From: Patescibacteria group bacterium
Lineage (GTDB): Bacteria > Patescibacteriota > Patescibacteriia > UBA9570
Direction: 5' to 3'
NCBI GenBank assembly: GCA_041660305.1
Contig: JBAZWO010000006.1
Span: 16,432 to 80,431 of the forward strand
DNA: 64,000 bases
Every line of letters begins with the position of its first letter. Positions within the stretch are counted from its first letter, which is position 1. Of this stretch, positions 895 through 64,000 are shown piece by piece. The translations under genes and the position numbers were made by a program. The notes below the pieces were generated by a model. The model had not been told where the DNA came from and did not search any database. It saw only the letters and a list, made by a program, of their open reading frames with translations.

Positions 895-906
895 ATAAAA
901 AGACAA

Positions 907-1002
907 TTAACTAATATTACCAAACCAAAAACACGCTATACTTATACCTAATATTAGACCAAATGATAATAATAACGGAAACGTAGCGCGCAATTTTTTC
1001 AT
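907..1002 (-). CDS. hypothetical 31-aa hydrophobic peptide (MKKLRATFPLLLSFGLILGISIACFWFGNIS)
   Basis: Own translation. It is a short ATG..TAA ORF between the methyltransferase and manB on the same strand, with one predicted TM-like stretch. There is no homology evidence. Confidence 0.2.
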   Translation of the reverse strand: MKKLRATFPLLLSFGLILGISIACFWFGNIS

Positions 1003-1042
1003 TGAGAGTACTATACATAATTTTAAACGCTTTAGCAAGATA

Positions 1043-1170
1043 CTACCTTCCATCCCCAACCCTTCCCTCCTCTAAAGAGGGAAGGGAGAAATTTCTTCTC
1101 CTCCCTTTAGAGGGGAGGCCTCCGGTTCTACGAAGTCGTAGGCTCGGAGAGAGGTTGGAAGGTGGGGTAG
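1043..1170. repeat. GC-rich nested-hairpin element, copy A (CTACC...GGTAG termini)
   Basis: A 128-bp GC-rich island in AT-rich DNA. It has a perfect 10-bp hairpin at 1060-1069/1077-1086 (CCCTTCCCTC/GAGGGAAGGG) and CTACGA-AG-TCGTAG at 1128-1141. Positions 1043-1090 (48 nt) are identical to 60077-60124. Confidence 0.85.
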
Positions 1171-3429: not shown

Positions 3430-3463
3430 CCAAAGCAATAAATTTTGCTAGATTTAAATTATT

Positions 3464-3497
3464 GAGCGCTCTTCTGTTACACCTGAGGCGCTTTTTT
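3464..3497 (+). terminator. candidate intrinsic terminator after elp3
   Basis: AGCGC (3465-3469) pairs with GCGCT (3488-3492), with 2-3 further pairs after a bulge, and is followed by a T6 run (3492-3497). Confidence 0.45.
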
Positions 3498-3533
3498 ATT
3501 TAAATTAATAATTAAGAATTAATAAAATATATT

Positions 3534-4352: not shown

Positions 4353-4362
4353 GTTTTTAAAA

Positions 4363-4415
4363 GATTGTAAACTGATTGTCAACTAAAAATCTCTATTGTC
4401 AAGTAATTGTAAACT
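4363..4415. promoter_or_regulatory. four 11-bp ATTGTMAAST repeats in two abutting pairs (candidate operator/iteron-like sites)
   Basis: The units are gATTGTAAACT (4363-4373), gATTGTCAACT (4374-4384), tATTGTCAAGT (4394-4404) and aATTGTAAACT (4405-4415). A fifth, related tATTGACAAAA lies at 4433-4443. Confidence 0.45.
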
Positions 4416-4442
4416 AAAATTCATTAATTAAGTATTGACAAA

Positions 4443-4456
4443 ATCAACTAGTTGAT
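4443..4456. promoter_or_regulatory. perfect 14-bp palindrome ATCAACTAGTTGAT abutting the antitoxin start codon (candidate TA operator)
   Basis: The palindrome is read directly from the sequence. It sits between a TTGACA hexamer (4435-4440) and the ATG at 4457. Confidence 0.45.
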
Positions 4457-4720
4457 ATGGATCAATTAATTACAACTAATAATACTATAGGCGCATTTGC
4501 GGCTAAAACGCATTTATCTGCCATTTTGGAAAAAGTGCAGGCCGGGCAGGTGTTTACAATTACTAAAAACGGTAAGGCCGTGGCCGAAATTAAATCGGTG
4601 CAGTCAAATTCAGCCAAAGCTCACACAGCGTTAGCGATGGCTCGTAAAATACGAGAATCGGTGGTTGGCACAGTTACTCGGGAGGAAATTAAAGAGATGA
4701 TTAATTATGGTAGGCCATAA
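4457..4720 (+). CDS. type II antitoxin, Phd/YefM family
   Basis: An 87-aa protein whose N-terminal pattern FAAKTHLSAILEKVQAGQVFTITKNGKAVAEI fits Phd/YefM. It lies immediately upstream of a PIN-domain ORF. Confidence 0.8.
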   Translation: MDQLITTNNTIGAFAAKTHLSAILEKVQAGQVFTITKNGKAVAEIKSVQSNSAKAHTALAMARKIRESVVGTVTREEIKEMINYGRP

Positions 4721-4723
4721 ATT

Positions 4724-5173
4724 ATGAAAAACATGATTGAGCGCTGGGTAGTGGATTCGTCTTTTACTGCGCCGTTATTTTTATCAGATGAACAATCAAA
4801 TTCTATAGATGGTTTTTTTAATACGGCTTTTCAAGAAACAATGCAAATTTTTGTGCCGGCGTTATGGTGATTTGAAATAAATAGCATTCTACAGTTATCA
4901 GTAAAACGACATCGTTTAACTCATCAACAGGTGGTTACCGCTATTGAAGTGTGTAAATATTTTAGTTTTTTTCAAATTGAGCCAGTAGTGTTCAATCAAG
5001 ATATTTTTGCTTTGGCGCAAACTCATAATTTAACCGCTTATGACGCCTCGTACTTAGATTTAGCCATTCGTAAACAAGCCGGTTTAGCTAGCTTAGATAA
5101 ACAGCTAAATGATGTGGCTAAAACATTAGGTATTGACATTATACATACAAAGTATATACTTAATACTAACTAA
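4724..5173 (+). pseudogene. vapC: VapC-type PIN-domain toxin interrupted by one in-frame TGA (4868-4870)
   Basis: Own translation from the ATG at 4724 gives MKNMIERWVVDSSFTAPLF...VPALW*FEINS..., which continues in the same frame into track ORF 4931-5173. The PIN acidic residues are present (VVDSS, FEINS, AYDASYLDLA, SLDKQL). The stop falls where PIN toxins commonly have Trp (LWWxE). Confidence 0.8.
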
Positions 5174-5192
5174 GTATTAATAAAGTATTTGT

Positions 5193-5504
5193 ATGGCCAC
5201 AACTACTATGAGTATTAAAATAGACGCACAAGTTAAACAATCTGCTCAACAAATCGCTGCGGATCTAGGCTTAAGTTTAAGCGGTGTGGTGAATGGTTTT
5301 TTAAAACAATTTGTGCGTACCAAAGCAGTGCATTTTAGCTTAGAAGAAAAAGAAATTCCGTCACCATATTTAATTAAAGCTTTAAGGGAGTCACAGGAAG
5401 ATATTGCCGCTGGCAGAGTATCGCCCGCTTTTGATAATGCTGAAGACGCTATTAAATGGTTACACACTCCTGAATCTGAGCAGAAATATGCAAATCAACT
5501 TTAG
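5193..5504 (+). CDS. type II antitoxin, RelB/DinJ family
   Basis: The N-terminal ribbon-helix-helix-like segment SIKIDAQVKQSAQQIAADLGLSLSGVVNGFLKQFV fits this family. It is followed by an overlapping toxin ORF. Confidence 0.8.
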   Translation: MATTTMSIKIDAQVKQSAQQIAADLGLSLSGVVNGFLKQFVRTKAVHFSLEEKEIPSPYLIKALRESQEDIAAGRVSPAFDNAEDAIKWLHTPESEQKYANQL

Positions 5505-5709
5505 TAAACGATTTAATAAACAATATAAAAAAGCAGCTTTAAATATTCAGAGAGCTTTTAACAATCGTTTACAAATTTTTATAGATAACAAATTTCATTC
5601 TAGTTTACATAATCATGCCTTAACAGGACAATTTGAAGGTTTTCGGAGTATTAATGTTACTGGAGATTGGCGAGCATTATTTCATGAGAATGAAGATGAT
5701 TCAATATAG
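5488..5709 (+). CDS. type II toxin, RelE/YafQ-family mRNA interferase
   Basis: The internal ATG at 5488 of track ORF 5404-5709 gives MQINFSKRFNKQYKK...LHNHALTGQFEGFRSINVTGDWRALF. It overlaps the antitoxin 3' end by 17 nt. Confidence 0.75.
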   Translation: MQINFSKRFNKQYKKAALNIQRAFNNRLQIFIDNKFHSSLHNHALTGQFEGFRSINVTGDWRALFHENEDDSI

Positions 5710-5748
5710 ATAGTATACTTCGTTATTTTTAATATCACATAAAATCGG

Positions 5749-5776
5749 TTGCCTGGATATTTATCTATGCTACAAT
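5749..5776 (+). promoter_or_regulatory. candidate sigma70-type promoter for glyA-ychF
   Basis: TTGCCT (5749-5754), a 16-nt spacer, then TACAAT (5771-5776), 36 nt upstream of the glyA ATG. Confidence 0.4.
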
Positions 5777-5811
5777 ATTTGTAATTAAATAATCATTAAC
5801 TTATTAATCCC

Positions 5812-7056
5812 ATGCTCGAACATCTTAGACAACAAGATCCGGAATTGGCCGGTTATATCCAAGAAGAGCTTAAGCGTCAGAGAGAGAATATCGAACTAAT
5901 TCCCTCTGAAAATTTTGTTTCTGTGCCAGTGCTAGAAGCTTTAGGCAGTATTTGTACCAATAAATATTCCGAAGGATATCCGGGCAAGCGCTATTACGGC
6001 GGCAATGAGTGGATTGATAAAATCGAGCAATTGGCCATTGACCGAGCTAAACAAATTTTTGGCGCGGAGCATGTTAATGTTCAGCCGTTATCTGGGGCGC
6101 CGGCTAATTTAGCGGCTTATTCAGCTTTGTTAAAACCAGGCGATACGGTTTTAGGCATGGATTTATCGCATGGTGGCCATTTAACCCATGGGCATCCGGT
6201 TACATTATCAGCTAAGATTTACAACTTTGTGCGTTATAAAACGGCGCCAGATGGCACAATTGATTATGATAATTTACGAGCCATGGCTTTGGAGCATAAG
6301 CCCAAACTTATTTTAGCCGGTTATTCAGCTTATTCGCGTGATTTGGATTATAAAAAGTTTCAAGCGATTGCCGATGAAGTGGGCGCTATAACTATGGCTG
6401 ACGTAGCGCATGTGGCTGGCTTAATTGCTGGAGGTGAATTTAATAATCCAGTGCCGATATTTGACGTAGTGACTACCACTACGCATAAAACTTTACGCGG
6501 ACCCAGAGGCGGCATGATTATGTGTAAAGAAAAATATGCTCAAGCTATTAACAAGGCAGTGTTTCCAGGTTTACAAGGTGGTCCGCACGATCATCAAATA
6601 GCGGCTTTAGCAGTGGCTTTGGGTGAAGCACTCAAGCCGGAATTTAAAGATTATGCCAGACAAGTAAAAAAGAATGCTAAAGTATTGTGTAATAAATTGC
6701 AAGCGGCTGGTATGAAAATTATGTTTGGTACTACTGAAAATCATTTAGTGTTGGCTGATGTTACACCATTGGGTATAGCTGGAAAAATCGCTCAAACAGT
6801 TTTAGATGAAGTGAAAATTACTTTAAACATGAATATGATTCCAGATGATTCGCGTAAACCAACTGATCCATCTGGTATTCGGTTAGGTTCGGCTCCTACC
6901 ACTACTCGTGGCATGAAAGAACCGGAAATGGAAGTAATTGCTGATTTAATTGTGAAAACCTTAAAAAATCACGACAATGCGGCAGTGAAGGCTGAAATAA
7001 AGCAACAGGTACTAGCTTTAACCGCTAAATTTCCGTTGTATCCGGAGTTAGGCTAA
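5812..7056 (+). CDS. glyA: serine hydroxymethyltransferase
   Basis: Full-length match to the SHMT pattern, including the PLP site TTTTHKTLRGPRGG and SENFVS..EGYPGKRYYGG. Confidence 0.97.
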   Translation: MLEHLRQQDPELAGYIQEELKRQRENIELIPSENFVSVPVLEALGSICTNKYSEGYPGKRYYGGNEWIDKIEQLAIDRAKQIFGAEHVNVQPLSGAPANLAAYSALLKPGDTVLGMDLSHGGHLTHGHPVTLSAKIYNFVRYKTAPDGTIDYDNLRAMALEHKPKLILAGYSAYSRDLDYKKFQAIADEVGAITMADVAHVAGLIAGGEFNNPVPIFDVVTTTTHKTLRGPRGGMIMCKEKYAQAINKAVFPGLQGGPHDHQIAALAVALGEALKPEFKDYARQVKKNAKVLCNKLQAAGMKIMFGTTENHLVLADVTPLGIAGKIAQTVLDEVKITLNMNMIPDDSRKPTDPSGIRLGSAPTTTRGMKEPEMEVIADLIVKTLKNHDNAAVKAEIKQQVLALTAKFPLYPELG

Positions 7057-7061
7057 ATTTC

Positions 7062-8126
7062 ATGGCATTACAAATAGGCATTGTTGGTCTGCCCAACGTA
7101 GGAAAATCAACGTTATTTAAAGCGCTGACCAAAATTCAGGTGGAGGCGAGTAATTATCCGTTTTGTACGATTGATCCTAATATTGGGGTGGTACCGGTGC
7201 CGGATGAACGGATTAATAAATTAAGTGTGTTATCAAAATCAGCCAAAACGATTCCGGCCGCGATTGAGTTTGTGGATATTGCCGGGCTGGTAGCGGGTGC
7301 ACATAAAGGTGAAGGATTGGGCAACAAGTTTTTAAGCAATATTCGAAATGTAGATGCCATTGTGCAAGTGGTGCGCGAATTTAGCGATGGGAATGTTATT
7401 CATGTGCATGGCAAAGTGGATCCAAAAAGCGATGTTGAGGTGATTAATTTAGAATTAATCATGGCCGATCTGGAATTATTAAAAAAACATTTAGACAAGG
7501 TAGATAAAAAAGTGCGCGGCAATGATAAAGAGGCGATTCGTGAACAAGTGGTGCTGAAAAAAATTATTACTGTGTTAGAAGCCGGCCAGTTAGCCAGTAC
7601 GGTTACGCTGGATCCGGAATTAGAAGAGCCATTTGTTAAAGTGTTAAATTTGTTAACCAGAAAACCCATGTTGTATGTGGTGAATGTGGATGAATCTGCT
7701 ACGCCGAAGGCTTCGCAGAATTTTGGCCATGATGCAGTGGAAATTTCAGCTAAAATTGAAGCCGAATTAGCAGAATTGCCAGATGAAGATGCTAAAATGA
7801 TGATGCAGGAATTAGGGATGAAAGAAACTGGGTTAGAAAAATTAATTGTGGCTAGTTACAAACTACTTAATTTAATATCTTATTTTACTACCGGCGAAGA
7901 TGAAACTAAAGCTTGGACGATTCACCAAGGCGATTTAGCGCCTCGAGCCGCCGGAGTGATTCACACCGATTTTGAACAGAAATTCATTCGGGCGGAAGTA
8001 ATTGCTTGGGATAAATTATTAGAGGCCAAAGGGTGGGCACAGGCTAGAGATAAAGGCTGGTTACGCATGGAAGGAAAGAATTACATGGTGCACGATGGAG
8101 ACGTAATGGTGTTTCATCATGCGTAA
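7062..8126 (+). CDS. ychF: redox-regulated/ribosome-binding ATPase YchF
   Basis: G1 motif GLPNVGKSTLF, NYPFCTIDPN, and a C-terminal TGS-like end MEGKNYMVHDGDVMVF. Confidence 0.95.
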   Translation: MALQIGIVGLPNVGKSTLFKALTKIQVEASNYPFCTIDPNIGVVPVPDERINKLSVLSKSAKTIPAAIEFVDIAGLVAGAHKGEGLGNKFLSNIRNVDAIVQVVREFSDGNVIHVHGKVDPKSDVEVINLELIMADLELLKKHLDKVDKKVRGNDKEAIREQVVLKKIITVLEAGQLASTVTLDPELEEPFVKVLNLLTRKPMLYVVNVDESATPKASQNFGHDAVEISAKIEAELAELPDEDAKMMMQELGMKETGLEKLIVASYKLLNLISYFTTGEDETKAWTIHQGDLAPRAAGVIHTDFEQKFIRAEVIAWDKLLEAKGWAQARDKGWLRMEGKNYMVHDGDVMVFHHA

Positions 8127-9747
8127 ATTTAATTTTCCATTCATCTTGTTAATCACGTTGATCATGATCATCATGGTCACGAATTGTATTTGGATTTATC
8201 AAGACCAAAGTCCGCCATTATCAGATATGGCTGGCCATTCGTTTCGTAGTGTGCAAATGGCTCATTGGTTACAGGATGGTAAATTGTTAAGTATTTTAAA
8301 ACAAGATACCATTTATCCACCATTTACTTATCTGGTTACGGGAATTATTTTTTTATTAGTTGGTTATTATCCAGATATTCCACAGTATTCGTTATTGTTA
8401 TGGGTAATAATATTAATGATTTCTATTTACAGTATTGGTAACACGATTTATAAAAATAAATATTTAGCGTTAGGCGCAACAGCGTTAACCATGTGTTATC
8501 CATTGGTAGCACATTTTAGCAGAATTTATGATCTTGATTTTCCGTTAACGGCCTTAGTAACAGCTAGTATGGCGGTATTATTACAAACGAATCATTTTGC
8601 TAAACGCCGGGAAACTATTGTTTTTTCATTACTAGTGGTAGCGGTATTATTAACCAAATGGACAGGAGTGTTTTTTATAGTGGGGCCAGCGTTTATTGTA
8701 TTATTATCAAAACGAAATAACATTAATATAAAAAATATTAGTCTGGCATTAGGCATTATTTTGGTGTTGACCATGCCTTGGTATTGGTTGCACACCAACA
8801 TCATTTTAGATATTGCCGAGGCTACGCGCAATAATGTGTTTTCTGTGCCACACGAGAATTTGTTACGTTTAAAAAGTTTGTTATTTTATGCACGATCTAT
8901 TACGCAAGGCATTATTTGGCCACTAACTCTAATATTTTTAACTGGTGTGATTATTTGTTTTAAAAAAATAAAACGTTGTTATTTTTGGCTATTAGTTAGT
9001 TGGTTGATAATACCATATTTAATCTTCACGTTTATTTATTCAAAAGAGATTCGTTATTTAATGCCGTTGTATCCGGCGCTAGCTCTTTGCAGTATGAGTT
9101 GTTTTAGTTATTTATTTTCAGCTTACTCACTGAAGCTTAAGCGTAGGTGGGTGTTCTCAGTAATTATTTCAGTATTCTCAGTGATTCTGATGTTTTGTAT
9201 TTGGTTCGATACATCTTGGGGCACAAGACTGTTACCATTTTCTCATGCCTACGGTTATCAAAAAATTACTCCTAAACAAGTGTATTATGGGTTTACGTAT
9301 CCTACGCAGTATCACACAACATTAATGTTAGTTGCTCAAGAACTAGCTAATATAGGTTCAGCTAAAGTAGCGGTAGTGCCGAATAGTATTTTTTTAACGG
9401 CTACGCAAATACAATATTACACGGCGTTGCATGGTAATATAAAGCTTAATTTTTCATTGAGTAGTAAATTGCGCAATCCGGCGTGGCGAGATGTATTACC
9501 TCAAGCCGATTATGTGATTACCAAAACCGGCGAACAAGGGCCAAAATTATGGGCAGCTAATTTAAAAGATATTGCAACAGCTGAACAGAATAATGATGTT
9601 ATTTTTCAGCAATTTGAATTAATTGGTCAGTGGCAATTAAATGGTATTGAAACTAGTGCGCAACAAATTAATTTATATAAAAAAAACGATAAATTACTCC
9701 CTTTCCCCTTAATAGGGGAAAGGGTTGGGGATAGAGGTAGGATTTAA
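8119..9747 (+). CDS. polytopic membrane protein, GT-C fold glycosyltransferase-like (PMT/ArnT, GT39/GT83-like); last ~16 aa encoded by repeat element C
   Basis: It has at least 10 hydrophobic segments, an IYPPFTYL motif typical of PMT_2/ArnT-like proteins, and a large C-terminal soluble domain. The C-terminal LLPFPLIGERVGDRGRI is read from the GC-rich hairpin. Confidence 0.6.
   Translation: MRKFNFPFILLITLIMIIMVTNCIWIYQDQSPPLSDMAGHSFRSVQMAHWLQDGKLLSILKQDTIYPPFTYLVTGIIFLLVGYYPDIPQYSLLLWVIILMISIYSIGNTIYKNKYLALGATALTMCYPLVAHFSRIYDLDFPLTALVTASMAVLLQTNHFAKRRETIVFSLLVVAVLLTKWTGVFFIVGPAFIVLLSKRNNINIKNISLALGIILVLTMPWYWLHTNIILDIAEATRNNVFSVPHENLLRLKSLLFYARSITQGIIWPLTLIFLTGVIICFKKIKRCYFWLLVSWLIIPYLIFTFIYSKEIRYLMPLYPALALCSMSCFSYLFSAYSLKLKRRWVFSVIISVFSVILMFCIWFDTSWGTRLLPFSHAYGYQKITPKQVYYGFTYPTQYHTTLMLVAQELANIGSAKVAVVPNSIFLTATQIQYYTALHGNIKLNFSLSSKLRNPAWRDVLPQADYVITKTGEQGPKLWAANLKDIATAEQNNDVIFQQFELIGQWQLNGIETSAQQINLYKKNDKLLPFPLIGERVGDRGRI
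9699..9741. repeat. GC-rich hairpin element, copy C
   Basis: A perfect 10-bp stem CCCTTTCCCC/GGGGAAAGGG with loop TTAATA (9699-9724), then GGGGATAGAGGTAGG. The 26-nt core and GGGGATAGAGGTA are shared with 61646-61690. Confidence 0.85.
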
Positions 9748-10871
9748 TTGTATCGTAAAAAATAAATGTGTCTGACCACTTGGGCATGAGCGCGGCCGTA
9801 AAAAATCGGCTCATGAAATGGTTCAAAATGATTTTGCTGTAACACGTTTTGCAACGGCAAAGTTAGCATGCCATCAAACCGGCGCCAAGCGGGCAGTGCT
9901 ATTACTAAGCGTGCGTTGGGCGCTAAGAGTTTTGGTAATACTGTAAATACATCTTGGTAAAATTTGGTTAATTGGCGATGAATTTTTTCGGTTTTGTTGG
10001 GGTGCACGGGACCTAAATAACCTTCACTAACAATGCAGTTAATAGAATTAACCGGTAATATATTAGATAATTGCAATATATCACTAAGATGTAACGGCAC
10101 ATTAGGTAGTTTTAACCAAGCTAAATTATTAGCGGAATCTTCAATGCATTTTTTAGAAATATCTGATCCAATAATGTTTTTATGCCCTAATAATAGAGCT
10201 TCTTGTAATACCGTACCAGAACCACAGAACGGATCTAACAATGTTTCAGCTGGTTGAGGTTGAACAATATTTACCATCATTTTCGCTACTTTTGGCGGAA
10301 GCATGCCAGAAAAGTGATCGCGTTGCGGGCGACCGTAATCGCGTTGGGCATATTCTTCGAATGGTTGCACGGTTAAGGTTTGGCCAAGTATAATATGTTT
10401 TTTATAAATGGCAATAATAAAATCGGTTTGCTGATCGAGTAAATGTTCTTTTTTTACAATTACAGAAGATAAAGCCGGCTCCAAACTTTCCACTAAACGC
10501 ACTGAACCATTTACACGCAAGTCTTTTTTCCAGGCAATACCAATCGGCTTAATTTTTTTAGCATAATGTGTTACCACTTCAGGTGTAACTTGGTTATCGG
10601 CCGCGTACACACTAAAACCAAAGTGTAATTTTTTATCCGGTAACTGTAATTGAGCTAAGTAATCTTTTAGTTGTTCAATGCCGGCTAAACTACGGTCAAT
10701 CTGGCCAATGATTTTAGCTGTTTTTATAGTGCCACCTAATTGATCTATGTCTGGCAATGTATCTAATTGAGCAATCGAGCCGTGTTGCCAAGTAATATTA
10801 TTATAAAGCGTAATCAACTCTAAAGCGGATAATTCCGGAGTATTACCTAAAACAGCTAAATATTTATTCAT
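9744..10871 (-). CDS. SAM-dependent RNA methyltransferase, UPF0020/Trm11/RlmL-like catalytic domain
   Basis: Motif I is LLDPFCGSGTVLQEALLLG. The N-terminal region of about 180 aa could be a THUMP-like RNA-binding module, though this is not verifiable here. Confidence 0.6.
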   Translation of the reverse strand: MNKYLAVLGNTPELSALELITLYNNITWQHGSIAQLDTLPDIDQLGGTIKTAKIIGQIDRSLAGIEQLKDYLAQLQLPDKKLHFGFSVYAADNQVTPEVVTHYAKKIKPIGIAWKKDLRVNGSVRLVESLEPALSSVIVKKEHLLDQQTDFIIAIYKKHIILGQTLTVQPFEEYAQRDYGRPQRDHFSGMLPPKVAKMMVNIVQPQPAETLLDPFCGSGTVLQEALLLGHKNIIGSDISKKCIEDSANNLAWLKLPNVPLHLSDILQLSNILPVNSINCIVSEGYLGPVHPNKTEKIHRQLTKFYQDVFTVLPKLLAPNARLVIALPAWRRFDGMLTLPLQNVLQQNHFEPFHEPIFYGRAHAQVVRHIYFLRYN

Positions 10872-11806
10872 AAACGATATTTTCTAAACCAGGTAATAAA
10901 ATTTTGCATACCCTCAGTAAACGAAGTTTGTGGTTGATAATTTAATAATTTTTGTGCTTTGCTAATATTAGCACAGGTATGTTTTACATCGCCAGTTTGT
11001 TCAGGCGCTTGTTCAATAATAGCCTGTTCGCCACTAAGCTGTGCAATAGTCTCAATAAACTCATTTAATGTAACAGATTTATTATTGCCTAAATTAATAA
11101 GCTCATAATTAAACGGGTTTTTTATAGCCGCTACAATGCCTTGTACAATATCGTTCACATAAGTGTAATCTCGGCTAGAAGAACCGTCACCAAATTTTTT
11201 AATTGGCTGATGTTTTAAAATAGCTTCGGTAAATAAATAAGGCGCCATATCCGGCCGACCACGTTCGCCGTATACTGTGAAAAAACGCAAACAGGTCACT
11301 TTTAATTTTTCTTTATCAGCAAACTGTTTTAGTAGCTGTTCAGCCGTTAATTTGGTAGTGGCATAGGGTGAAATTGGCTGGCCGGTAGTGTCCGTTTCTA
11401 CATAAGGTCGATTTGGGTTATCGCCATATACAGAAGAAGATGAACCAAATACCAATTGAGAAATGCCATAACGCACAGCTAATTCAGCCAGATTCTTAGT
11501 GCCTACTACATTAACGTCTTCATATAATTTTGGTTGTAATAATGATGGCCGAATGCCGGCTCGTGCCGCCAAGTGAACAATGCAATCAAATTGATGTTCT
11601 TTAAAAACAGTTTCTAATTTATTTTTATTACAAATATCTATTTGATAGAACGGTACATTTGGATAAAGTTTTAAATTAGCTAATTTATATTGTGGATCAT
11701 AATAATTGTTTAGATCATCAATGACTACTAAATCATGTTCAGCTTGTAGCGTTTCTACAACGTGTGAGCCAATAAATCCAGCGCCGCCGGTGATTAATAT
11801 GTTCAT
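10868..11806 (-). CDS. NAD-dependent SDR epimerase, UDP-glucuronate 4-epimerase-like
   Basis: GGAGFIGSH Rossmann motif, catalytic YATTK, and the LRFFTVYGERGRPDMA signature typical of UDP-GlcA 4-epimerases. Confidence 0.75.
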   Translation of the reverse strand: MNILITGGAGFIGSHVVETLQAEHDLVVIDDLNNYYDPQYKLANLKLYPNVPFYQIDICNKNKLETVFKEHQFDCIVHLAARAGIRPSLLQPKLYEDVNVVGTKNLAELAVRYGISQLVFGSSSSVYGDNPNRPYVETDTTGQPISPYATTKLTAEQLLKQFADKEKLKVTCLRFFTVYGERGRPDMAPYLFTEAILKHQPIKKFGDGSSSRDYTYVNDIVQGIVAAIKNPFNYELINLGNNKSVTLNEFIETIAQLSGEQAIIEQAPEQTGDVKHTCANISKAQKLLNYQPQTSFTEGMQNFITWFRKYRL

Positions 11807-11812
11807 AATATC

Positions 11813-11885
11813 CTACCTCACCCTGTCTCTCGACTTACGCTCGAGACATCCCTCTCCTATTAGGAGAGGGAAAGAGGGAGAGGTA
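11813..11885. repeat. GC-rich nested-hairpin element, copy E
   Basis: 11-bp terminal inverted repeats TACCTCACCCT (11814-11824) and AGGGAGAGGTA (11875-11885) with 1 mismatch. Inner hairpins are TCTCGA/TCGAGA (11828-11846) and CCCTCTCC/GGAGAGGG (11850-11870). Confidence 0.8.
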
Positions 11886-12790
11886 ATTTTTAAATATTCC
11901 TTAATCCCTTCCTTAAAATTATACTTTGGTTTCCAGTTTAAGATAGCCCTAGCTTTGCGAGCATTTAAACACGAGCGCAGTGCTTCACCGGTACGCACGG
12001 CTTTGTATTTAGCCGTTGGCGCATGTTTAAAATTAGCACTAATGGTATCGTAAACCATTTGGTCACTTATTTCTTTACCTAAGCCTAAATTTACGGTTAA
12101 ATGATCTCCTTTTTTTAAACCAATTACGTTAGCCTGTACAATATCAGCCACATAAGTATAGTCGCGCGTTTTTGAGCCATCTCCATATATAGTTGGATTA
12201 ACATTCTGGCGAATTTTCTCGCTAAATATTGCTACCACACCAGCCTCACCATGTGGGTCTTGTCGTGGACCATACACATTTGGGTAACGAAAAATAGTGT
12301 AATTAAATTTTCCAACTCGAGCATAATATTCAATACACTTTTCGCCTAATAATTTTGATAAACCATATGGTGAAAGTGGTTCAGGGTTTACTCGTTCAGA
12401 AATGGGGTATTTGCCCGGATCTCCATAAATAGCGCCACCGGTAGAAGCGAAGATAAACTTTTTAATCTTAATTTCCATGCCCGTCAACAACAAGTTTACC
12501 GTGCCTTGTACGTTCACTTCCAAAGTTGGAATAGGGTCGGTAACCGATTTTACTACTTCCGCAATAGCGGCATGATGGTTAATAATTTCCGGTTTTTCTG
12601 TCTGCATAATCTTGCGAATAGCTGTTAGATCACGAATATCTGCCTGATAAAACTTAGCTTTTGGGTTAATATTCTGTTTAAAACCATGGTGCATACTATC
12701 AACCACCACTACTTTATGGCCTAATTTAATATAAGCAGCAGTAATATGAGAGGCAATGAATCCGGCTCCGCCGGTAACGAGAATACGCAT
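11813..12790 (-). CDS. NAD-dependent SDR epimerase/dehydratase (UDP-glucose 4-epimerase-like); last ~24 aa encoded by repeat element E
   Basis: GGAGFIASH, catalytic YGLSK, and RYPNVYGPRQDPHGEAGVV. The stop TAG is the reverse complement of the element's terminal CTA (11813-11815). Confidence 0.8.
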   Translation of the reverse strand: MRILVTGGAGFIASHITAAYIKLGHKVVVVDSMHHGFKQNINPKAKFYQADIRDLTAIRKIMQTEKPEIINHHAAIAEVVKSVTDPIPTLEVNVQGTVNLLLTGMEIKIKKFIFASTGGAIYGDPGKYPISERVNPEPLSPYGLSKLLGEKCIEYYARVGKFNYTIFRYPNVYGPRQDPHGEAGVVAIFSEKIRQNVNPTIYGDGSKTRDYTYVADIVQANVIGLKKGDHLTVNLGLGKEISDQMVYDTISANFKHAPTAKYKAVRTGEALRSCLNARKARAILNWKPKYNFKEGIKEYLKITSPSFPLLIGEGCLERKSRDRVR

Positions 12791-57881: not shown

Positions 57882-57921
57882 TGCGAGCATAAATCTCTAC
57901 CACAAACACTACACCTTCCGG
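57866..57921 (+). promoter_or_regulatory. candidate anti-terminator helix (57866-57878 pairing with 57908-57921)
   Basis: CCGGAAG (57866-57872) is a copy of the terminator 3' arm. It can pair with CTTCCGG (57915-57921), extended by TGT/ACA. This pairing excludes the terminator stem. Confidence 0.45.
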
Positions 57922-57940
57922 ATCACCGGAAGGTTTTGTT
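57913..57940 (+). terminator. intrinsic terminator (attenuator) upstream of aroF
   Basis: A perfect 9-bp stem ACCTTCCGG (57913-57921) / CCGGAAGGT (57926-57934) with loop ATCA, followed by TTTGTT. Confidence 0.65.
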
Positions 57941-57983
57941 ATATGAATCAGTTACAAATAATAAATTAAGCCATAATACAAAT

Positions 57984-59000
57984 ATGATAATAGTAATGCA
58001 AGAAGCAGCGGCCAAAGCACAAGTAACGGCCGTAGTGAATCATGTTAAAGAATTAGGCCTCAAGCCTGTGTTATTAGAAGGCACCGAACGTAATGTGATT
58101 GCCGTAATTGGTGATGAGCGTACGTTAGATATGCACGCCATAAATGCCATGGCCGGTGTGGAAAAAGTAATGCCCGTATTAGCGCCTTTTAAATTAGCTT
58201 CCCGTGAACACGCTCATGTAAAATCGGTTATCAATATTACGGAGCAGGTAAGTATTGGTGGTAAACGGTTAGCCATCATGGCCGGCAACTGTGCGGTAGA
58301 AACAGCCGAGATTTCTATGGCCACGGCGAAAGCGGTAAAACAAGCTGGAGCTAATATTCAACGGGGTGGTGCCTTTAAGCCGCGCTCGTCACCATACTCG
58401 TTTCAAGGTTTAGGCGAGGCCGGCTTGAAAATATTACAAGCGGTGCGAGCCGAAACAGGCTTGCCAATTATTACAGAAATATTAGATCCGCGGCATGTAG
58501 AGCAGGTAGCTAGTTACGCTGATATTTTGCAAATCGGTACACGTAACATGCAAAATTTTGAATTGTTAAAAGAAGTGGGTAACTGTAAAAAACCAGTATT
58601 GTTAAAACGTGGCATGGCGGCCACCATTGAAGAGTTTTTGTTATCAGCGGAATATATTTTATCGAGTGGTAACCCTAACGTGATTTTATGTGAACGGGGG
58701 ATTCGTACCTACGAAACCGCCACCCGTAATACCTTAGATATTTCCGCTATTCCCGTGTTAAAACACATGACGCATTTACCAGTAATAGTGGATCCTTCGC
58801 ATGCCGCTGGCAAACGAGATTACGTAGCAGCCTTAGCTAAAGCCGCTATTGCTGCCGGAGCTGATGGGTTACTGATGGATGTGCATCCTGATCCGGTAAA
58901 AGCGTTGGTAGATTCCGATCAAGCGTTAAACTTTGAATTATTTGCTGAATTAATGGTAGAGTTAAAACGGATTGCCGAGGCAGTTGGACGAACCATTTAA
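57984..59000 (+). CDS. aroF: 3-deoxy-7-phosphoheptulonate (DAHP) synthase, type I-beta with N-terminal ferredoxin-like regulatory domain
   Basis: I prefer the ATG at 57984; the track start is a TTG at 57936. The N-terminus MIIVMQE...[11 protein letters not shown] matches the Thermotoga-type DAHPS regulatory domain. The core has [16 protein letters not shown] and VDPSHA. Confidence 0.9.
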
Positions 59001-59002: not shown

Positions 59003-60016
59003 ATGACACTAACAATCACTTCAAAGTCCCAATCAAAAAGTTATCCAGTATTTATTCAAGCTGGCAGTTTAGCTAAATTTAAATTTCCTAAAGATTCAGT
59101 AATTATTACCGATCGTGTAATTGCTAAACACTATGCCAAGTTCATTAAAAAATATCGGCGCATTATTCTACCTAGTGGTGAAGCTACTAAAAACTTAACT
59201 ACTATTCAAAAAATTTGTGAGCAATTAGTTAAGTTAGGTTGCAATCGATCTACTACGTTAATGGCGTTAGGCGGCGGGGTAATTGGGGATATTACTGGGT
59301 TTGTGGCTGCGGTGTACATGCGTGGTGTGGCGTATTATCAGTGCCCAACTACATTATTGGCCATGGTGGATTCTAGTTTAGGTGGAAAAACGGGAGTGGA
59401 TTTATCGGCTGGGAAAAATTTAGTTGGGACTATTTATCCACCGGTAGCGGTAATAATGGATCCGTTAGTTTTAACCACATTACCAAATAAAATATTCACA
59501 ACTAGTTTAGGTGAAGTAGTAAAATATGGTTTATTAGACGGCACATTTTTTGCTTGGTTAGAAAAAAATAAAGTTAATATAAAACAGCGTAAATTAAATA
59601 CCTTACAACAATTAATTATTAAGTGTGCGGAAATAAAACAAGCCATTGTGGAAGCGGATGAACATGAAGGCGGGGCACGTATGCTACTTAATTTAGGTCA
59701 CACATTTGGCCACGCGTTTGAACAATTAAGTGGCTACAGGTTACCACATGGTCAAGCGGTGGCCATTGGTTTAGTGCAGGCTGCTCAGTTTGCTCACATG
59801 CTGGAACTAGAGCGTTTAATTAATTTGTTACAGTATTTTAATCTACCTATCAAACTAGCTAAACCGTATCCCATTAATCAAGTAATTAAAGCTATGCAGG
59901 CTGATAAAAAACGTCATGGTAATCAATTTACCTTAATATTACCCGAAGCCATTGGGCACACCACCATTCATAATTATATTACTAAGCAGCAAATAATTAA
60001 GTTTTTTATAAATTAA
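59003..60016 (+). CDS. aroB: 3-dehydroquinate synthase
   Basis: GGGVIGDITGFVAAVYMRGV, DSSLGGKTGVD, and NLGHTFGHAFE. Confidence 0.92.
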   Translation: MTLTITSKSQSKSYPVFIQAGSLAKFKFPKDSVIITDRVIAKHYAKFIKKYRRIILPSGEATKNLTTIQKICEQLVKLGCNRSTTLMALGGGVIGDITGFVAAVYMRGVAYYQCPTTLLAMVDSSLGGKTGVDLSAGKNLVGTIYPPVAVIMDPLVLTTLPNKIFTTSLGEVVKYGLLDGTFFAWLEKNKVNIKQRKLNTLQQLIIKCAEIKQAIVEADEHEGGARMLLNLGHTFGHAFEQLSGYRLPHGQAVAIGLVQAAQFAHMLELERLINLLQYFNLPIKLAKPYPINQVIKAMQADKKRHGNQFTLILPEAIGHTTIHNYITKQQIIKFFIN

Positions 60017-60178
60017 ACACCCTCAACCCCCTAAACATCCTACCTCACTCCCCCTAACCCCCTCTCTCCTCTGATTCTACCTTCCATCCCCAACCCTTCC
60101 CTCCTCTAAAGAGGGAAGGGAGAATTACGAAATTATTCCCTCCTTCCTTTGAGGAAGGAGGGTTAGGGAGGAAGGTAG
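60017..60178. repeat. GC-rich nested-hairpin element, copy B (composite), filling the aroB/aroA-aroK spacer
   Basis: Outer imperfect inverted repeats lie at 60040-60060 and 60160-60178 (CTACCT.../...AGGTAG). The inner 48 nt at 60077-60124 are identical to 1043-1090. A perfect 10-bp hairpin CCCTCCTTCC/GGAAGGAGGG lies at 60138-60162. Confidence 0.85.
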
Positions 60179-60211
60179 TATTGATGAGAAGAGACAGAAG
60201 GCCAAAGAGTT

Positions 60212-61693
60212 ATGCATCTTAAACCCGTCAAAATCACCCTTACTTTACCTGGTTCTAAATCGTTAACCCAACGAGCGTTAATTTGTGCTAGCTTGGCGCA
60301 AGGGCAATCAATTATTACGGCACCTAATTATGGTGATGATTTACAATATTTAATTAAGGCATTGCAACAACTAGGTGTACGTATACAAAAAAAATCGAAC
60401 CAACTAATTATAAATGGAGTAGCTGGAAAGTTTTGTGTGCCAACTAAGCCAATTTATGTAGGCGATTCCGGTGCTAATTATCGTTTTCTAGCCGAATTAG
60501 TACCAGTCGGTACCAAATTAACGGGTTCAGCTCAATTACAAAAACGTTTACTAAAAACGGCGCCAACTAGTCAAACGATATCTGGAAAATTATTAGCCGG
60601 TACCCTAACTAAGATACCTGATAAGTTAGTTTCCAAAGGTTATGTGGCCATGACACAAGCCGTTATTCGTGATTTTTCCGGACGCGGTCGAAAATATATT
60701 ATCGAGCCCGATGCTAGTGCGGCCACATATTGGCTCACTTATAACTGGATAACTGGTGCAAAAATAACGTTTAGTAACTGGCCAGTAAAATCTTATCAAC
60801 CTGATTTTCAGTATGCTAAAGCATTGCAACAGTTAACTAACGGCCAAACAGCGTTTGATTTTAATACCATGCCGGATAGCGTAATGAGTTTAGCTGTAGC
60901 AGCCATTTTTACCAAGAAAATAATTACTATTAAAAATATTTCCCAGCTTACTTACAAAGAAAGTAATCGTTTGCAAGCGTTACATTATAATCTAACTAAA
61001 ATCAACATAAAAAATACTATTACAAAAAACAGCATTACTATTTATGGCACGGGTGGTAAATTTAAACATTCCAAAATTAAAACTTTTAATGATCACCGCT
61101 TGGCCATGAGTTTTGGGGTATTAGGTTTGCCAGTAGATAAACCAAATTGTGTAAATAAAAGTTATCCTAATTTTTGGCAAGATTATAAAAAAATTCAAGA
61201 GGCTAATGTAGTGTTAACCGGTATGCGTGGGGTAGGCAAAACTACGTTAGGTAAACAATTAGCCAAACAATGGGGTATGAAGTTTGTGGATTTAGATCAA
61301 CTTATTGAACGTAAAGCTAAATTACCAATTGCTGAAATTGTTGCACGCTACGGCTGGAAAAAATTTCGTGCACTTGAACATCAAGTTTGTAAACAAATTA
61401 CTAAATTACAAAATACGGTTATTGCAACTGGCGGCGGCACATTAATGTATACACGTAATTACCAATTACTAAAACATAATTATATTATTTTATTAACCGC
61501 GCCATTAACTACATTAGCTAAAAGAATTAAACAAGATAACAATATTAGGCCAGCATTATCAAAAAATAACACGGCATTATCAGAATTAAAGGCGATTTGG
61601 GATAAGCGCAAAGAAACATATTATAAAATAGCGGATTTAATTTCCCCCTTTCCCCTTAATAGGGGAAAGGGGGCGAGGGGGATAGAGGTATGA
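60212..61693 (+). CDS. aroA-aroK: bifunctional EPSP synthase (short form, ~330 aa) / shikimate kinase; last ~16 aa encoded by repeat element D
   Basis: AroA motifs are LPGSKS, GDSGANYRF, EPDASAATY, KESNRL, NDHRLAMSF and KSYPNFW. The AroK domain starts near 61211 (TGMRGVGKTTLGKQLA, VDLD, GGG). Confidence 0.85.
   Translation: MHLKPVKITLTLPGSKSLTQRALICASLAQGQSIITAPNYGDDLQYLIKALQQLGVRIQKKSNQLIINGVAGKFCVPTKPIYVGDSGANYRFLAELVPVGTKLTGSAQLQKRLLKTAPTSQTISGKLLAGTLTKIPDKLVSKGYVAMTQAVIRDFSGRGRKYIIEPDASAATYWLTYNWITGAKITFSNWPVKSYQPDFQYAKALQQLTNGQTAFDFNTMPDSVMSLAVAAIFTKKIITIKNISQLTYKESNRLQALHYNLTKINIKNTITKNSITIYGTGGKFKHSKIKTFNDHRLAMSFGVLGLPVDKPNCVNKSYPNFWQDYKKIQEANVVLTGMRGVGKTTLGKQLAKQWGMKFVDLDQLIERKAKLPIAEIVARYGWKKFRALEHQVCKQITKLQNTVIATGGGTLMYTRNYQLLKHNYIILLTAPLTTLAKRIKQDNNIRPALSKNNTALSELKAIWDKRKETYYKIADLISPFPLNRGKGARGIEV
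61644..61690. repeat. GC-rich hairpin element, copy D
   Basis: A perfect 12-bp stem CCCCCTTTCCCC/GGGGAAAGGGGG with loop TTAATA (61644-61673), then GGGGGATAGAGGTA. The core is shared with copy C at 9699-9741. Confidence 0.85.
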
Positions 61694-63033
61694 TTTGTAT
61701 TGTCATCACCAATCCATCTCAAATTAAAACAGCCAACAAAACCGCCGCTAATTTATTAGAATTGCGCACAGATTTATATAAAATTTTTTCTTTAAGTAAA
61801 TTAGTGAAACAATGCCAGAAACCTGTTATTGTTACCATTAAAAATCAAGATAAACAGTTATTGCAAGAAGCTTTAAATTTAAACGTAGCTTATATTGATA
61901 TTGATTACAAAAATAAATTACTGTTAAACTATTTTGAAAAAAATAACAAAAATAATAAAACCAAATTAATTATTTCGTATCATAATTTTTCTCACACTCC
62001 TTCATTCAAACAGTTGGATCGGTTGGTTAAATCAGGCGTGAATAAAATAGCAACCATGATTAACGCGGTTGAGGATAACTGGGTAATCGCGCAGTTATTA
62101 AAAAAATATCCTAATAAAATTACCGCTATTGGCATGGGGGAATTAGGGATCATGACAAGACTGCATCCGTGGCAGAAGATTAGTTATTTTGCGATTGGCT
62201 TTGGTAGAGACGCCTTGCAAGGCGTCTCTACCAAAAAAATTGCTCCAGGGCAATTAACTATTCAAGAGCAAAAATTAAAATTATATGGCATTATTGGTAA
62301 TCCGGTGCAGCATAGCTTATCGCCAAAATTACATAATAGTTGGTTCAAGCAGCATAATATTTTAGCACTATATCAACGCTGGCAGGTAAAGACGTTGCAT
62401 GCAACGTCTCTACAGTTAATGATGAAAATATTCAGATTTTTTGATTTAGCCGGCGCGTCGGTAACCATGCCATATAAAAAAGATATTATTAAATATTTAG
62501 ATAGCATTAATATTCATGCCAAAAAGATTGGTGCAGTTAATACCATTGTGCGGAAAGGAAATAAATTAATTGGCTATAATACCGATTGGATCGGGGTAAA
62601 ATTAGTATTTAACCCCCTGCCTTGCAGGGAAGGGGGTAGGGGGAAGGGTCTACGCGTCTTAATCTTAGGCCGCGGTGGCGCAGCTCAGGCAGTGGCGTAT
62701 GCCATGAAAAAAATGGGTGCGAAATCAATTAACATGTTATCACGTCATGATAAACCAGATATAAATTTTGATATTCTAATTAACGCCACACCCGTGCGTG
62801 ATAAATTATTAATTCCGAAAGAATTATTACACGGTAAAATCGTGATGGATTGTAATTACCTGCCTTCGCTAAAGCTATGGCAGGCAGGTGGCGCTACTAA
62901 ATTATTACGTGTGGCAAAAAAAATGAACGCAATTACTATAGATGGATTACCAATGTTAATCAATCAAGCCAAAGAGCAATTTAGATTGTGGACTAGTAGA
63001 GACGTAGCGCGCTACGTCTCTACTATGTTATAA
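61690..63033 (+). CDS. aroD-aroE: bifunctional type I 3-dehydroquinate dehydratase / shikimate 5-dehydrogenase
   Basis: AroD motifs are ELRTDL, IISYHNF and KIATM. AroE motifs are YGIIGNPVQHSLSP, SVTMPYK, AVNTI, GYNTD and LGRGGAAQA. The ATG overlaps the upstream stop (ATGA). Confidence 0.88.
   Translation: MICIVITNPSQIKTANKTAANLLELRTDLYKIFSLSKLVKQCQKPVIVTIKNQDKQLLQEALNLNVAYIDIDYKNKLLLNYFEKNNKNNKTKLIISYHNFSHTPSFKQLDRLVKSGVNKIATMINAVEDNWVIAQLLKKYPNKITAIGMGELGIMTRLHPWQKISYFAIGFGRDALQGVSTKKIAPGQLTIQEQKLKLYGIIGNPVQHSLSPKLHNSWFKQHNILALYQRWQVKTLHATSLQLMMKIFRFFDLAGASVTMPYKKDIIKYLDSINIHAKKIGAVNTIVRKGNKLIGYNTDWIGVKLVFNPLPCREGGRGKGLRVLILGRGGAAQAVAYAMKKMGAKSINMLSRHDKPDINFDILINATPVRDKLLIPKELLHGKIVMDCNYLPSLKLWQAGGATKLLRVAKKMNAITIDGLPMLINQAKEQFRLWTSRDVARYVSTML
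62201..62234. repeat. perfect 34-bp palindrome, GTAGAGACG-N10-CGTCTCTAC family, copy 1
   Basis: TTGGTAGAGACGCCTTG|CAAGGCGTCTCTACCAA. It is in frame as GRDALQGVST in the AroD-AroE linker. Confidence 0.9.
62386..62413. repeat. 28-bp palindrome (1 mismatch), same family, copy 2
   Basis: GTAAAGACGTTGCA|TGCAACGTCTCTAC. It is in frame as VKTLHATSLQ, a different frame from copies 1 and 3. Confidence 0.85.
62612..62637. repeat. GC-rich hairpin inside aroE part
   Basis: ACCCCC (62612-62617) pairs with GGGGGT (62632-62637). The alternative is CCCTGC-CTT-GCAGGG (62615-62629). It is translated as NPLPCREGGRGKG just before the GRGGA nucleotide-binding loop. Confidence 0.6.
62858..62889. repeat. GC-rich inverted repeat inside aroE part
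   Basis: ACCTGCC (62858-62864) pairs with GGCAGGT (62883-62889). It is translated as YLPSLKLWQAGG. Confidence 0.45.
62994..63025. repeat. perfect 32-bp palindrome, GTAGAGACG-N10-CGTCTCTAC family, copy 3
   Basis: TAGTAGAGACGTAGCG|CGCTACGTCTCTACTA. It is in frame as SRDVARYVST at the extreme C-terminus of AroD-AroE. Confidence 0.9.
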
Positions 63034-63043
63034 TTTTAATATT

Positions 63044-64000
63044 ATGCCCGGCAATACTTTCGGTCAACAATTTCGTGTCACCACTTGGGGAGAATCCCAC
63101 GGTATTGCTATTGGCGGCGTGGTAGACGGCTGTCCGGCGGGAATTAAATTAAATGAACAAGATATTCAGCAGGATTTAGATAAACGTAAGCCAGGGCAGA
63201 GCAATATTGCCACTGCTCGTAAAGAAGATGATAAAGTGCAAATTTTATCGGGAGTATTTAAAGGTAAAACTACCGGCACGCCGATTAGTTTAATTATTTA
63301 TAATCAAGATCAAAAATCACAGGATTATGCCAAGTTAAAAAATATTTATCGGCCTGGACACGCAGATGAAGTGTACGATTTAAAATATGGTTTTAGAGAT
63401 TATCGTGGTGGTGGGCGAGCCAGTGCCCGTGAAACGGCAGTGCGAGTAGCGGCGGCGGCGATTGCTAAAAAAATATTACCTAAAAAAACAATGGTAGTGG
63501 CGTACACCAAGCAAATTAAAAATATTATTGTAGCCAAACCAAAATTAGCGCAGATTGAACAAAATAGTGTGCGCGCCGCGGATAACGTATTAGCCAAAAA
63601 AATGGAGCGCTTAATTTTACAAGCTAAACAGCAGCACGATTCTTTAGGCGGTATCATAGAAATCATAGTCAAAGGCTGTCCGTCTGGCTTAGGCGAACCG
63701 GTGTTCGATAAACTAAAAGCCGATTTAGCTAAAGCGTTATTAAGCATTAACGCGGTAGTAGGCTTTGAATACGGCGCCGGTTTTAGCGTGGCGCATTTAT
63801 CTGGTTTAACGCATAATAAGCTAGAAGCCGGCATGTACGGTGGTATTGCTAACGGTAAAAATATTATTATGCGTGTAGCCGTAAAGCCTACTTCCTCTAT
63901 TAATGTCGGCGGTCGGCATGATCCGTGTATTTTACCGCGGGCTGTGCCGGTGTGTGAAGCAATGGTTAATTTAGTATTAGCCGATCATTATCTAAGAAAT
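63044..64000 (+). CDS. aroC: chorismate synthase; C-terminal end lies outside the window
   Basis: Own translation from the ATG at 63044 gives MPGNTFGQQFRVTTWGESHG...RPGHAD...RGGGRASARETA...GRHDPC. The frame stays open to position 64000, which explains its absence from the ORF track. Confidence 0.93.
   Translation, partial: MPGNTFGQQFRVTTWGESHGIAIGGVVDGCPAGIKLNEQDIQQDLDKRKPGQSNIATARKEDDKVQILSGVFKGKTTGTPISLIIYNQDQKSQDYAKLKNIYRPGHADEVYDLKYGFRDYRGGGRASARETAVRVAAAAIAKKILPKKTMVVAYTKQIKNIIVAKPKLAQIEQNSVRAADNVLAKKMERLILQAKQQHDSLGGIIEIIVKGCPSGLGEPVFDKLKADLAKALLSINAVVGFEYGAGFSVAHLSGLTHNKLEAGMYGGIANGKNIIMRVAVKPTSSINVGGRHDPCILPRAVPVCEAMVNLVLADHYLRN

Follow-up and report, generated by a model that had tools for sequence, protein, structure and literature searches.

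In the genome of a Patescibacteria group bacterium, an uncultured, ultra-small member of the candidate phyla radiation (CPR), a GC-rich hairpin occupies the last codons of the gene for the AroA-AroK fusion protein and reaches into the start codon of the aroD-aroE fusion gene that follows. We studied this hairpin, element D, in a stretch of 64,000 nucleotides (contig JBAZWO010000006.1 of assembly GCA_041660305.1, positions 16,432 to 80,431 of the forward strand), hereafter called the window, which is AT-rich, with a GC content of about 34%. We conclude that D is probably a single, one-ended unit of a dispersed, GC-rich palindromic repeat that resembles repetitive extragenic palindromes (REPs) and transposable elements of the miniature inverted-repeat type (MITEs) and that is tolerated in frame in this AT-rich CPR genome. 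Its survival is ascribed here to the fact that it is in frame and leaves the coupled gene junction intact.

A perfect hairpin at the aroK/aroD junction

The stem of D is a perfect 12-bp duplex at 61644-61673 of the plus strand, found by inspection of the sequence, by stem search and by folding, and it stands where the first-pass annotation of this DNA had placed it. Its 5' pyrimidine arm, CCCCCTTTCCCC (61644-61655), and its 3' purine arm, GGGGAAAGGGGG (61662-61673), enclose the loop TTAATA (61656-61661), in which T61656 can pair with A61661 to give a stem of 13 bp and a loop of 4 nt; the same loop is found in copy C of the family, described below. A G-rich tail follows, as had also been claimed: CGAGGGGGATAGAGGTA leads from the stem up to position 61690, and its final A is the first base of the aroD-aroE ATG (61690-61692). 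Positions 61674-61694 comprise the linker CGA, the G-tract tail GGGGGATAGAGGTA and the terminus GAGGTATGAT (61685-61694), and within this part the string GGGGATAGAGG is found exactly at 61678 and again at 9727. The hairpin measures 30 bp and the whole unit 47 nt.

Sequences within one mismatch of the D 12-mer occur three times in the window, against 0.04 expected, and GC-rich hairpins with a stem of at least 9 bp number 9, against about 1 in shuffled sequences. The 72 nt around the aroK/aroD junction fold at -29.6 kcal/mol, the extreme among 28 close same-strand junctions of the window, of which the next strongest reaches -17.4 kcal/mol and most lie between -2 and -10 kcal/mol. The other three ATGA overlaps in the window fold at -10.2, -7.1 and -4.1 kcal/mol; since these junctions are unstructured, the hairpin of D looks like a tolerated intruder and not like a design feature of the junction. 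Rfam 15 returned no family match in the window at gathering or at permissive thresholds, only a weak generic resemblance to miRNA-precursor hairpins. The junction region is base-identical in three independent assemblies (JGI, ENA and Logan), with 0 mismatches over 2.1-4.6 kb, which excludes a mis-assembly. We also considered programmed frameshifting and rejected it, because inspection of the sequence revealed no slippery heptamer at the right distance 5' of the hairpin.

An in-frame insertion at an older stop/start overlap

The open reading frame (ORF) 60212-61693 ends in ...LISPFPLNRGKGARGIEV, followed by the stop codon. Protein alignment, together with an alignment of the junction DNA with that of the two closest relatives (L001 and L002), places a net in-frame insertion of 39 nt at 61643-61681 of the plus strand (codons 478-490), which encodes SPFPLNRGKGARG. 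These 13 residues are missing from all 13 aligned AroA-AroK homologues, two of which are 69% and 67% identical to the window protein. The homologues end in ...YYxxAD(K/M)(I/V)-(I/L)(R/K)(V/T) and the window protein in ...YYKIADLI-SPFPLNRGKGARG-IEV, in each case directly before the stop.

At the DNA level, the junction reads GAT AAA ATC ATC CGG GTATGA AAA and GAT ATG GTA TTA CGC GTATGA AAA in the two closest relatives and ACATGAAAA in a more distant one, L243, in which the ATGA overlap is likewise kept. The overlap of the aroD-aroE ATG (61690-61692) with the aroA-aroK stop codon TGA (61691-61693) was read correctly in the first-pass annotation. The presence of GTATGA or ATGA in relatives that lack the element means that this four-base overlap (61690-61693, plus strand) is ancestral to the clade and older than D. 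The accompanying proposal, that D contributes to the aroD-aroE start codon, stands as regards position only: as judged from these junction sequences, D did not create the overlap but occupies an ancestral junction and conserves it. The terminus of D, GAGGTATGAT, is one base (G to T) away from the family consensus GAGGTAGGAT, and it is this base that yields both the ATG and the TGA. A G at this position, as in the consensus, would let the aroK frame run on and join aroD, and would abolish the start codon.

The tail that D adds to AroA-AroK is predicted to be disordered. In an AlphaFold2 model of the protein built from a 14-sequence alignment (mean predicted local distance difference test score [pLDDT], 86.4; predicted template modelling score [pTM], 0.86), the sole segment with a pLDDT below 50 comprises residues 477-493, right after the last helix (455-473), and the insert lies outside the structural core. 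The peptide had been described as a by-product and not the selected feature, and the present data favour that description: the tail is found in none of the 13 homologues whose C-termini and junctions were aligned, it falls in the low-pLDDT segment, copy C has the shared core in a different reading frame, and the tail that copy C adds to its own host protein is missing from 10 homologues.

A dispersed family of palindromic units

At least seven hairpin units of D's family lie in the window, and one more was found on a contig from the same JGI sample (L135). The copy most informative for D is C, a single unit at 9697-9743 (plus strand), 52 kb from D, which supplies the final 16 residues of a GT39-like glycosyltransferase (ORF 8119-9747). 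Its 26-nt core, CCCTTTCCCCTTAATAGGGGAAAGGG (9699-9724), is identical to that of D, loop included, as is its 13-nt tail, GGGGATAGAGGTA (9727-9739); C and D differ only in the linker and in the outermost stem pairs. The claim that the two copies share one core in different frames is thereby confirmed: the core is one base out of register with that of D and is translated PFPLNRGK in D versus PFPLIGER in C, the latter copy being read as LPFPLIGERVGDRGRI up to the stop codon.

In a unit of the family, an A/T-rich loop separates a pyrimidine arm from a purine arm, after which come a short linker and a G-tract tail with the ending ...GGGGATAGAGGTAGGAT. The stems vary from copy to copy (CCCTTTCCCC, CCCTTCCCTC, CCCTCCTTCC, TCCCTCTCC), the tail-distal arm being always all-pyrimidine and its partner complementary. 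The window contains three exact matches to the terminus GAGGTAGGAT (in C, in E and in the left part of B), and D deviates from it at one position. C and D stand alone as single units, and A, B and E are inverted dimers or composites whose GGTAG ends face outward. Element A (1043-1170, minus strand; z = -5.15) is an inverted dimer with the termini CTACC...GGTAG. It encodes the C-terminal part of the methyltransferase specified by ORF 1043-1888, where about 45 residues lie past the Pfam domain, and the stop codon of this gene is the TAG of GGTAG. Similarly, element E (11810-11886, minus strand; z = -5.49), a 77-nt copy with inverted termini, accounts for approximately the last 24 residues of an epimerase (ORF 11813-12790) together with its stop, again the TAG of GGTAG, and the ATG of the next gene lies 7 nt downstream. 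Cluster B (60020-60178, no strand assigned) combines a partial unit, with its terminus at 60037-60046 of the minus strand, and an inverted dimer at 60077-60178. Rounded, the fold z-scores of the long hairpins are -5.2 for A, -3.7 for B and -5.5 for E.

Cluster B, about 1.5 elements, lies in the 195-nt spacer between aroB and aroA (60017-60211). The two genes share about 29-47 nt of overlap in relatives; the insertion has thus uncoupled aroB from aroA. Moreover, four ORFs, those of the methyltransferase, the glycosyltransferase, the epimerase and AroA-AroK, end inside elements, at 0.95-0.98 of their length, and their tails extend in differing frames past Pfam domains or the ends of homologues. 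Taken together, these cases indicate that C-termini and junctions are the places where such insertions survive.

The copy on L135 is intergenic, upstream of fusA, and has the stem of C, another loop and the same tail; at 4540-4620 (minus strand), part of the unit, namely the loop, 3' arm and tail, is duplicated in tandem with a period of 34 nt. It was the only real copy recovered in a scan of metagenome contigs with the 17-mer tail GGGGATAGAGGTANGAT (16 specified bases), a query that proved too short and was swamped by chance matches. A GC-rich, apparently structured non-coding stretch lies upstream of this copy. On L143, a tandem run of the form (GGGGTATA)n(GGGGATA)n ends in GGGGATAGAGGTAGGAT, which suggests that the tail may expand as a heptamer repeat. 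The flanks of the elements are AT-rich: AAATTA abuts C, E and B, and the L135 copy is flanked by GGAAATTT on one side and by GGAATTTC on the other.

Several points weigh against D being a mobile repeat unit tolerated in frame. Inspection of the flanks gave no consistent repeat and hence no convincing target-site duplication, the site of D itself being obscured by divergence. The Pfam annotation of the window ORFs of at least 100 amino acids, about 67 kb of this genome being covered in all, includes neither a transposase nor a Y1 transposase (Y1_Tnp) of the REP-associated tyrosine transposase (RAYT) type; the scan took all such ORFs except two that lie antisense over annotated genes (11706-12053 and 63400-63834). 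Just two single units, C and D, are available, in the same orientation with respect to the host gene, which is too few to judge an orientation bias. In addition, the last 9 nt before the stop codon of aroA-aroK (ATAGAGGTA) belong to the repeat and match copy C exactly, yet they take the place of the ancestral I-x-V codons, so that the event was not a simple cut-and-paste insertion; either microhomology or replacement at ...GGTATGA or a later G-to-T change has to be assumed, and the two are not distinguishable. Finally, D has the longest and the sole fully perfect stem of the family here and lies at the most structured junction of the window, which fits selection for structure and equally fits a recent copy.

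A second palindrome family and the inserts of aroD-aroE

The aroD-aroE gene downstream of D carries palindromes of a second family, of the form GTAGAGAC-(variable complementary core)-GTCTCTAC, with GTAG at both outer ends and cores that differ by compensatory changes. The arms contain inverted GAGACG/CGTCTC sites, which we take to be the recognition sequence of BsmBI/Esp3I. Three copies lie in frame in aroD-aroE, at 62204-62233, 62387-62415 and 62996-63025, and encode GRDALQGVST, VKTLHATSL and SRDVARYVST, respectively. Further copies were found in relatives, at the orthologous site in L001 (3836-3861), inside the AroA of a different CPR metagenome-assembled genome (MAG) (L242, 10962-10987), where the copy encodes VETRHGVSL, and in L244 (17242 and 21584).

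Compared with a 403-residue orthologue, the protein encoded by aroD-aroE (61690-63033) has five insertions, namely, AIGFGRDALQGVST, LHATS, FNPLPCREG (hairpin at 62612-62637), LPSLKLWQ (hairpin at 62858-62889) and a C-terminal extension of 10 residues. This palindromic insert load is unusually high for one essential gene.

A similar hairpin-tail module in other phyla

We scanned species-representative genomes with the pattern CCCTTTCCCC-N(3-9)-GGGGAAAGGG and obtained at least 118 stretches from many phyla; about 14% of the listed matches are ordinary terminators. Among the matches listed (L003-L120), 51 of 121 hairpins carry GGGGATAGGGG or a near variant within a few bases on exactly one side, against about 0.1 expected, and none carries the tail on both sides; the stem is fixed by the search pattern, so that only the association of hairpin and tail is independent, and convergence of simple G/C-tract sequence is possible. 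The 51 listed tail-bearing matches span at least seven phylum-level groups, with representatives in Spirochaetes, Alpha- and Deltaproteobacteria, Myxococcales, Chloroflexi/Anaerolineae, Bacteroidota (including an Emticicia isolate), Fimbriimonadaceae and Peribacteria. Some of the listed copies combine two hairpins between a CCCCTAAATCCC end and a GGGGATAGGGG end. In an Anaerolineales MAG, the module is part of a repeat of about 200 nt that is present in at least 11 copies and contains no ORF. A search for an autonomous parent element found no outward-facing tail pairs 0.4-4.5 kb apart among the 118 other-phylum loci listed, and 14 loci from other phyla gave no Rfam match either. In viral contigs, 12 matches were obtained, three of them with the tail (L248, L253 and L254, which include two related viral contigs), and we do not consider these three enough to implicate phages.

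The consensus purine strand of the module, G4-A3-G3-N2-G4-ATA-G4, is a canonical four-tract G-quadruplex motif, of which the fourth G-tract is degenerate (GAGG) in C and D. From its sequence, the purine strand may form, in the consensus version, a G-quadruplex that competes with the hairpin. One could go further and read all these observations jointly: an undescribed mobile module, composed of a CCCTTTCCCC/GGGGAAAGGG hairpin, 1-6 nt and GGGGWTNGGGG, would be spread across many phyla; together with the second GTAG family, it would have colonised, in this CPR lineage, the coding sequences and gene junctions of core biosynthetic enzymes at a density like that of Rickettsia palindromic elements (RPEs), with five insertions in aroD-aroE alone; and D would have been co-opted, so that its hairpin may make translation of aroD-aroE depend on upstream ribosomes. 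We regard this combined reading as doubtful.

A possible history of the insertion and its alternatives

As described above, one repeat unit lies in the last codons of aroA-aroK and adds, in net terms, 39 nt or 13 codons. We picture the rest of its history as follows. Its persistence could have three reasons: the addition is in frame; the extra residues would hang as a disordered tail after the last shikimate kinase helix; and the change from GGTAGGA to GGTATGA would keep the ancestral GTATGA, and with it the upstream stop codon and the overlapping aroD start. Ribosomes translating aroK would melt the hairpin, terminate at the TGA and be able to restart on the overlapping AUG, as in the relatives. 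The hairpin itself would be needed for the spread of the element, by analogy with REP/RAYT systems and MITE ends, and would not serve the operon as an adaptation. If aroD-aroE expression is affected at all, this would then be a side effect, for which two candidates can be named: the hairpin could refold behind the terminating ribosome, about 16 nt behind the AUG, and the GGGGGA of the tail, 7 nt upstream of the AUG, could act as a tether resembling a Shine-Dalgarno (SD) sequence, the GAGG 1 nt upstream being presumably too close.

In E. coli operons, REP hairpins protect upstream mRNA from 3'-5' decay. D might likewise be, in line with a suggestion of the first-pass annotation, a domesticated cis-regulatory hairpin which, from 16 nt upstream of the AUG, gates translation of aroD-aroE by ribosomes arriving from aroK or shields the upstream mRNA from such decay. 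Its structure is the strongest at any close junction in the window, with a perfect 13-bp stem, GGGGGA is at an SD-like spacing and the AUG is unpaired in the predicted fold. In the same operon, the aroB/aroA and aroE/aroC junctions carry palindromic elements as well, and REPs are thought to work as RNA elements downstream of ORFs (PMC3733652). We nevertheless consider such a role unlikely, given that no relative examined has the hairpin although the same ATGA coupling exists there, that the other ATGA junctions of this genome are unstructured, and that the sequence is a dispersed repeat, found at unrelated gene ends and in intergenic DNA, with no match in Rfam; junctions and C-termini may merely tolerate insertions. 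Far less can be said for the idea that aroK and aroD are separated by an intrinsic transcription terminator or attenuator. A GC-rich stem-loop at a gene end is what such a signal would look like, but neither strand has a T-run after the hairpin (the stem is followed by GGGGGCGAGGGGG), the terminator/promoter scan did not call D, and the hairpin lies inside a translated ORF that overlaps the next gene by 4 nt; of all the explanations weighed here, we give this one the least credence.

Two further proposals strike us as very improbable. One is that the tail is a C-terminal peptide under selection, such as a tag for degradation or localisation. In its favour, the frame is open through the whole element, and four window proteins have element-derived tails rich in P, G and R. 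These tails, however, differ in frame and sequence and are missing from homologues, that of D is predicted to be disordered, and what is conserved is the DNA, across frames. Alternatively, the hairpin could have been made in place, by template switching or by inverted duplication of nearby G-rich coding sequence. This idea draws on aroD-aroE, where the pairing partner of the C-rich arm at 62613-62630 is a G-rich stretch matching native orthologue residues (GRxxGK), so that some hairpins here could be built against pre-existing sequence. For D, it is countered by the 26 and 13 identical nucleotides, loop included, that D shares with copy C, 52 kb away, by the presence of the tail in the copy on another contig (L135) and by the lack of a G-rich template at the site in relatives, which read ATCATCCGGGTATGA.

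Comparison with known palindromic elements

The kind of event proposed here, the arrival of a dispersed repeat unit in a coding sequence, has precedents. GTAG-tagged REPs overlap the ends of ORFs, provide them with TAG stop codons and are also present within genes (Di Nocera et al. 2013, PMC3733652). Like them, the units of D's family are small, GC-rich stem-loops in many copies (20-40 bp in REPs, 30 bp in D), present as single units (C and D) and as inverted dimers with GTAG ends outward (A, B and E); they lie just downstream of, or overlap, the 3' ends of ORFs, to which they supply TAG stops (ORFs 1043-1888 and 11813-12790), a minority is found inside genes in frame, and stem variants show complementary changes. 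The differences are that the GTAG of REPs stands directly at the foot of the stem, whereas here it closes a G-tract tail, 13-19 nt away from the stem (C, A, B and E), and reads GTAT in D; that no RAYT gene occurs in the roughly 67 kb covered; that the host is a CPR bacterium of about 34% GC and not a proteobacterium; and that the consensus of D's family matches none of the REP consensus sequences checked.

RPEs, for their part, make in-frame fusions with host genes (Ogata et al. 2000, as summarised in PMC10969869). The likeness to D lies in a selfish palindromic repeat that sits in frame in a housekeeping gene of a reduced genome, is missing from orthologues and occupies a site where the fold tolerates it. 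The differences are in size, host phylum and site: RPEs measure about 100-150 bp and form families in Rickettsia, whereas the unit at D has 47 nt (net +39 nt) and is found at the very C-terminus of the protein, where two genes are coupled. Bacterial MITEs such as Correia (CREE), ERIC and the Coxiella QMITE (PMC10969869) are likewise short, non-coding elements with long hairpins that form in-frame fusions with host ORFs, and their terminal inverted repeats have a counterpart in A, B and E. Unlike them, the elements described here show no clear target-site duplication, and no parent insertion sequence was identified in the window or in the 118 other-phylum loci listed; D and C carry only the 3' terminus. 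Among organelles, yeast mitochondrial DNA contains GC clusters, which are GC-rich, palindromic and mobile in a very AT-rich genome and include in-frame insertions in var1; being organellar, eukaryotic and unrelated in sequence, they offer an analogy only. A search of open-access full texts found no description of palindromic elements or MITEs of this kind in CPR/Patescibacteria, and the motifs in none of them. Thus, the kind of event is known from intragenic REPs and RPEs, and D's family and its occurrence in this host group appear to be undescribed.

The shikimate operon and other features of the window

D lies in a shikimate operon that extends over 57.9-64 kb of the window, its gene order being derived from the ORF list and Pfam. 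The operon comprises the gene for 3-deoxy-D-arabino-heptulosonate 7-phosphate (DAHP) synthase (57936-59000, called with a TTG start), aroB (59003-60016), aroA-aroK (60212-61693, plus strand), a fusion of 5-enolpyruvylshikimate-3-phosphate (EPSP) synthase and shikimate kinase according to Pfam, aroD-aroE (61690-63033, plus strand), a fusion of type I dehydroquinase and shikimate dehydrogenase, also according to Pfam, and aroC, which starts at 63044. The AroA-AroK protein matches a protein of a Patescibacteria (CPR) MAG with 100% identity. At the operon head, a hairpin at 57911-57936 with a 10-bp GC-rich stem, ACACCTTCCGG-ATCA-CCGGAAGGTTT, has its 3' edge at the TTG start of the DAHP synthase gene; it could be the terminator of the upstream unit or a leader structure. 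In the EPSP synthase half of AroA-AroK (60212-61190), protein alignment shows that about 60 residues in three blocks, present in other CPR AroA-AroK proteins, are missing from the fusion of this lineage (proteins P0001-P0003), and AlphaFold still models this AroA half confidently.

The GC-rich palindromic elements all lie at the two ends of the window (1-12000 and 60000-63100), with none in the approximately 45 kb of 12000-57000, a region of lower GC content (0.27-0.36) occupied by glycosyltransferase, ABC-transporter and sugar-nucleotide genes. The methyltransferase gene that ends in element A contains, in its N-terminal part, an imperfect GC-rich inverted repeat, CCCGCCTCGCCTCGGCGGA / TCGGCGTAGTCGAGGCGGG (1708-1749). 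A small cluster of genes of the mobile-element type, at 3534-5709, includes the gene for a KilA-N domain protein (3534-4352) and a toxin-antitoxin pair resembling RelB/YafQ (5193-5709), with short ORFs between them (4457-5173); the YafQ score is slightly under the curated cut-off of Pfam.

Implications

For annotation, our results imply that C-terminal extensions and internal inserts of CPR enzymes can be derived from repeats and are not to be taken as lineage-specific functional motifs; otherwise, gene callers and family models mis-score proteins with repeat-derived parts. They further indicate that selfish GC-rich palindromes are tolerated inside essential operons even in a streamlined CPR genome of about 34% GC. 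The aroK/aroD junction also constitutes a natural experiment: one and the same coupled ATGA junction is available in a version that carries a hairpin of about -25 to -29 kcal/mol and in a version that lacks it, so that the amount of structure tolerated at a site of termination and reinitiation can be tested directly. Should the hairpin-tail module found across phyla prove to be one family, it would count as a small mobile element of unusually wide distribution for which no mobilising enzyme is known.

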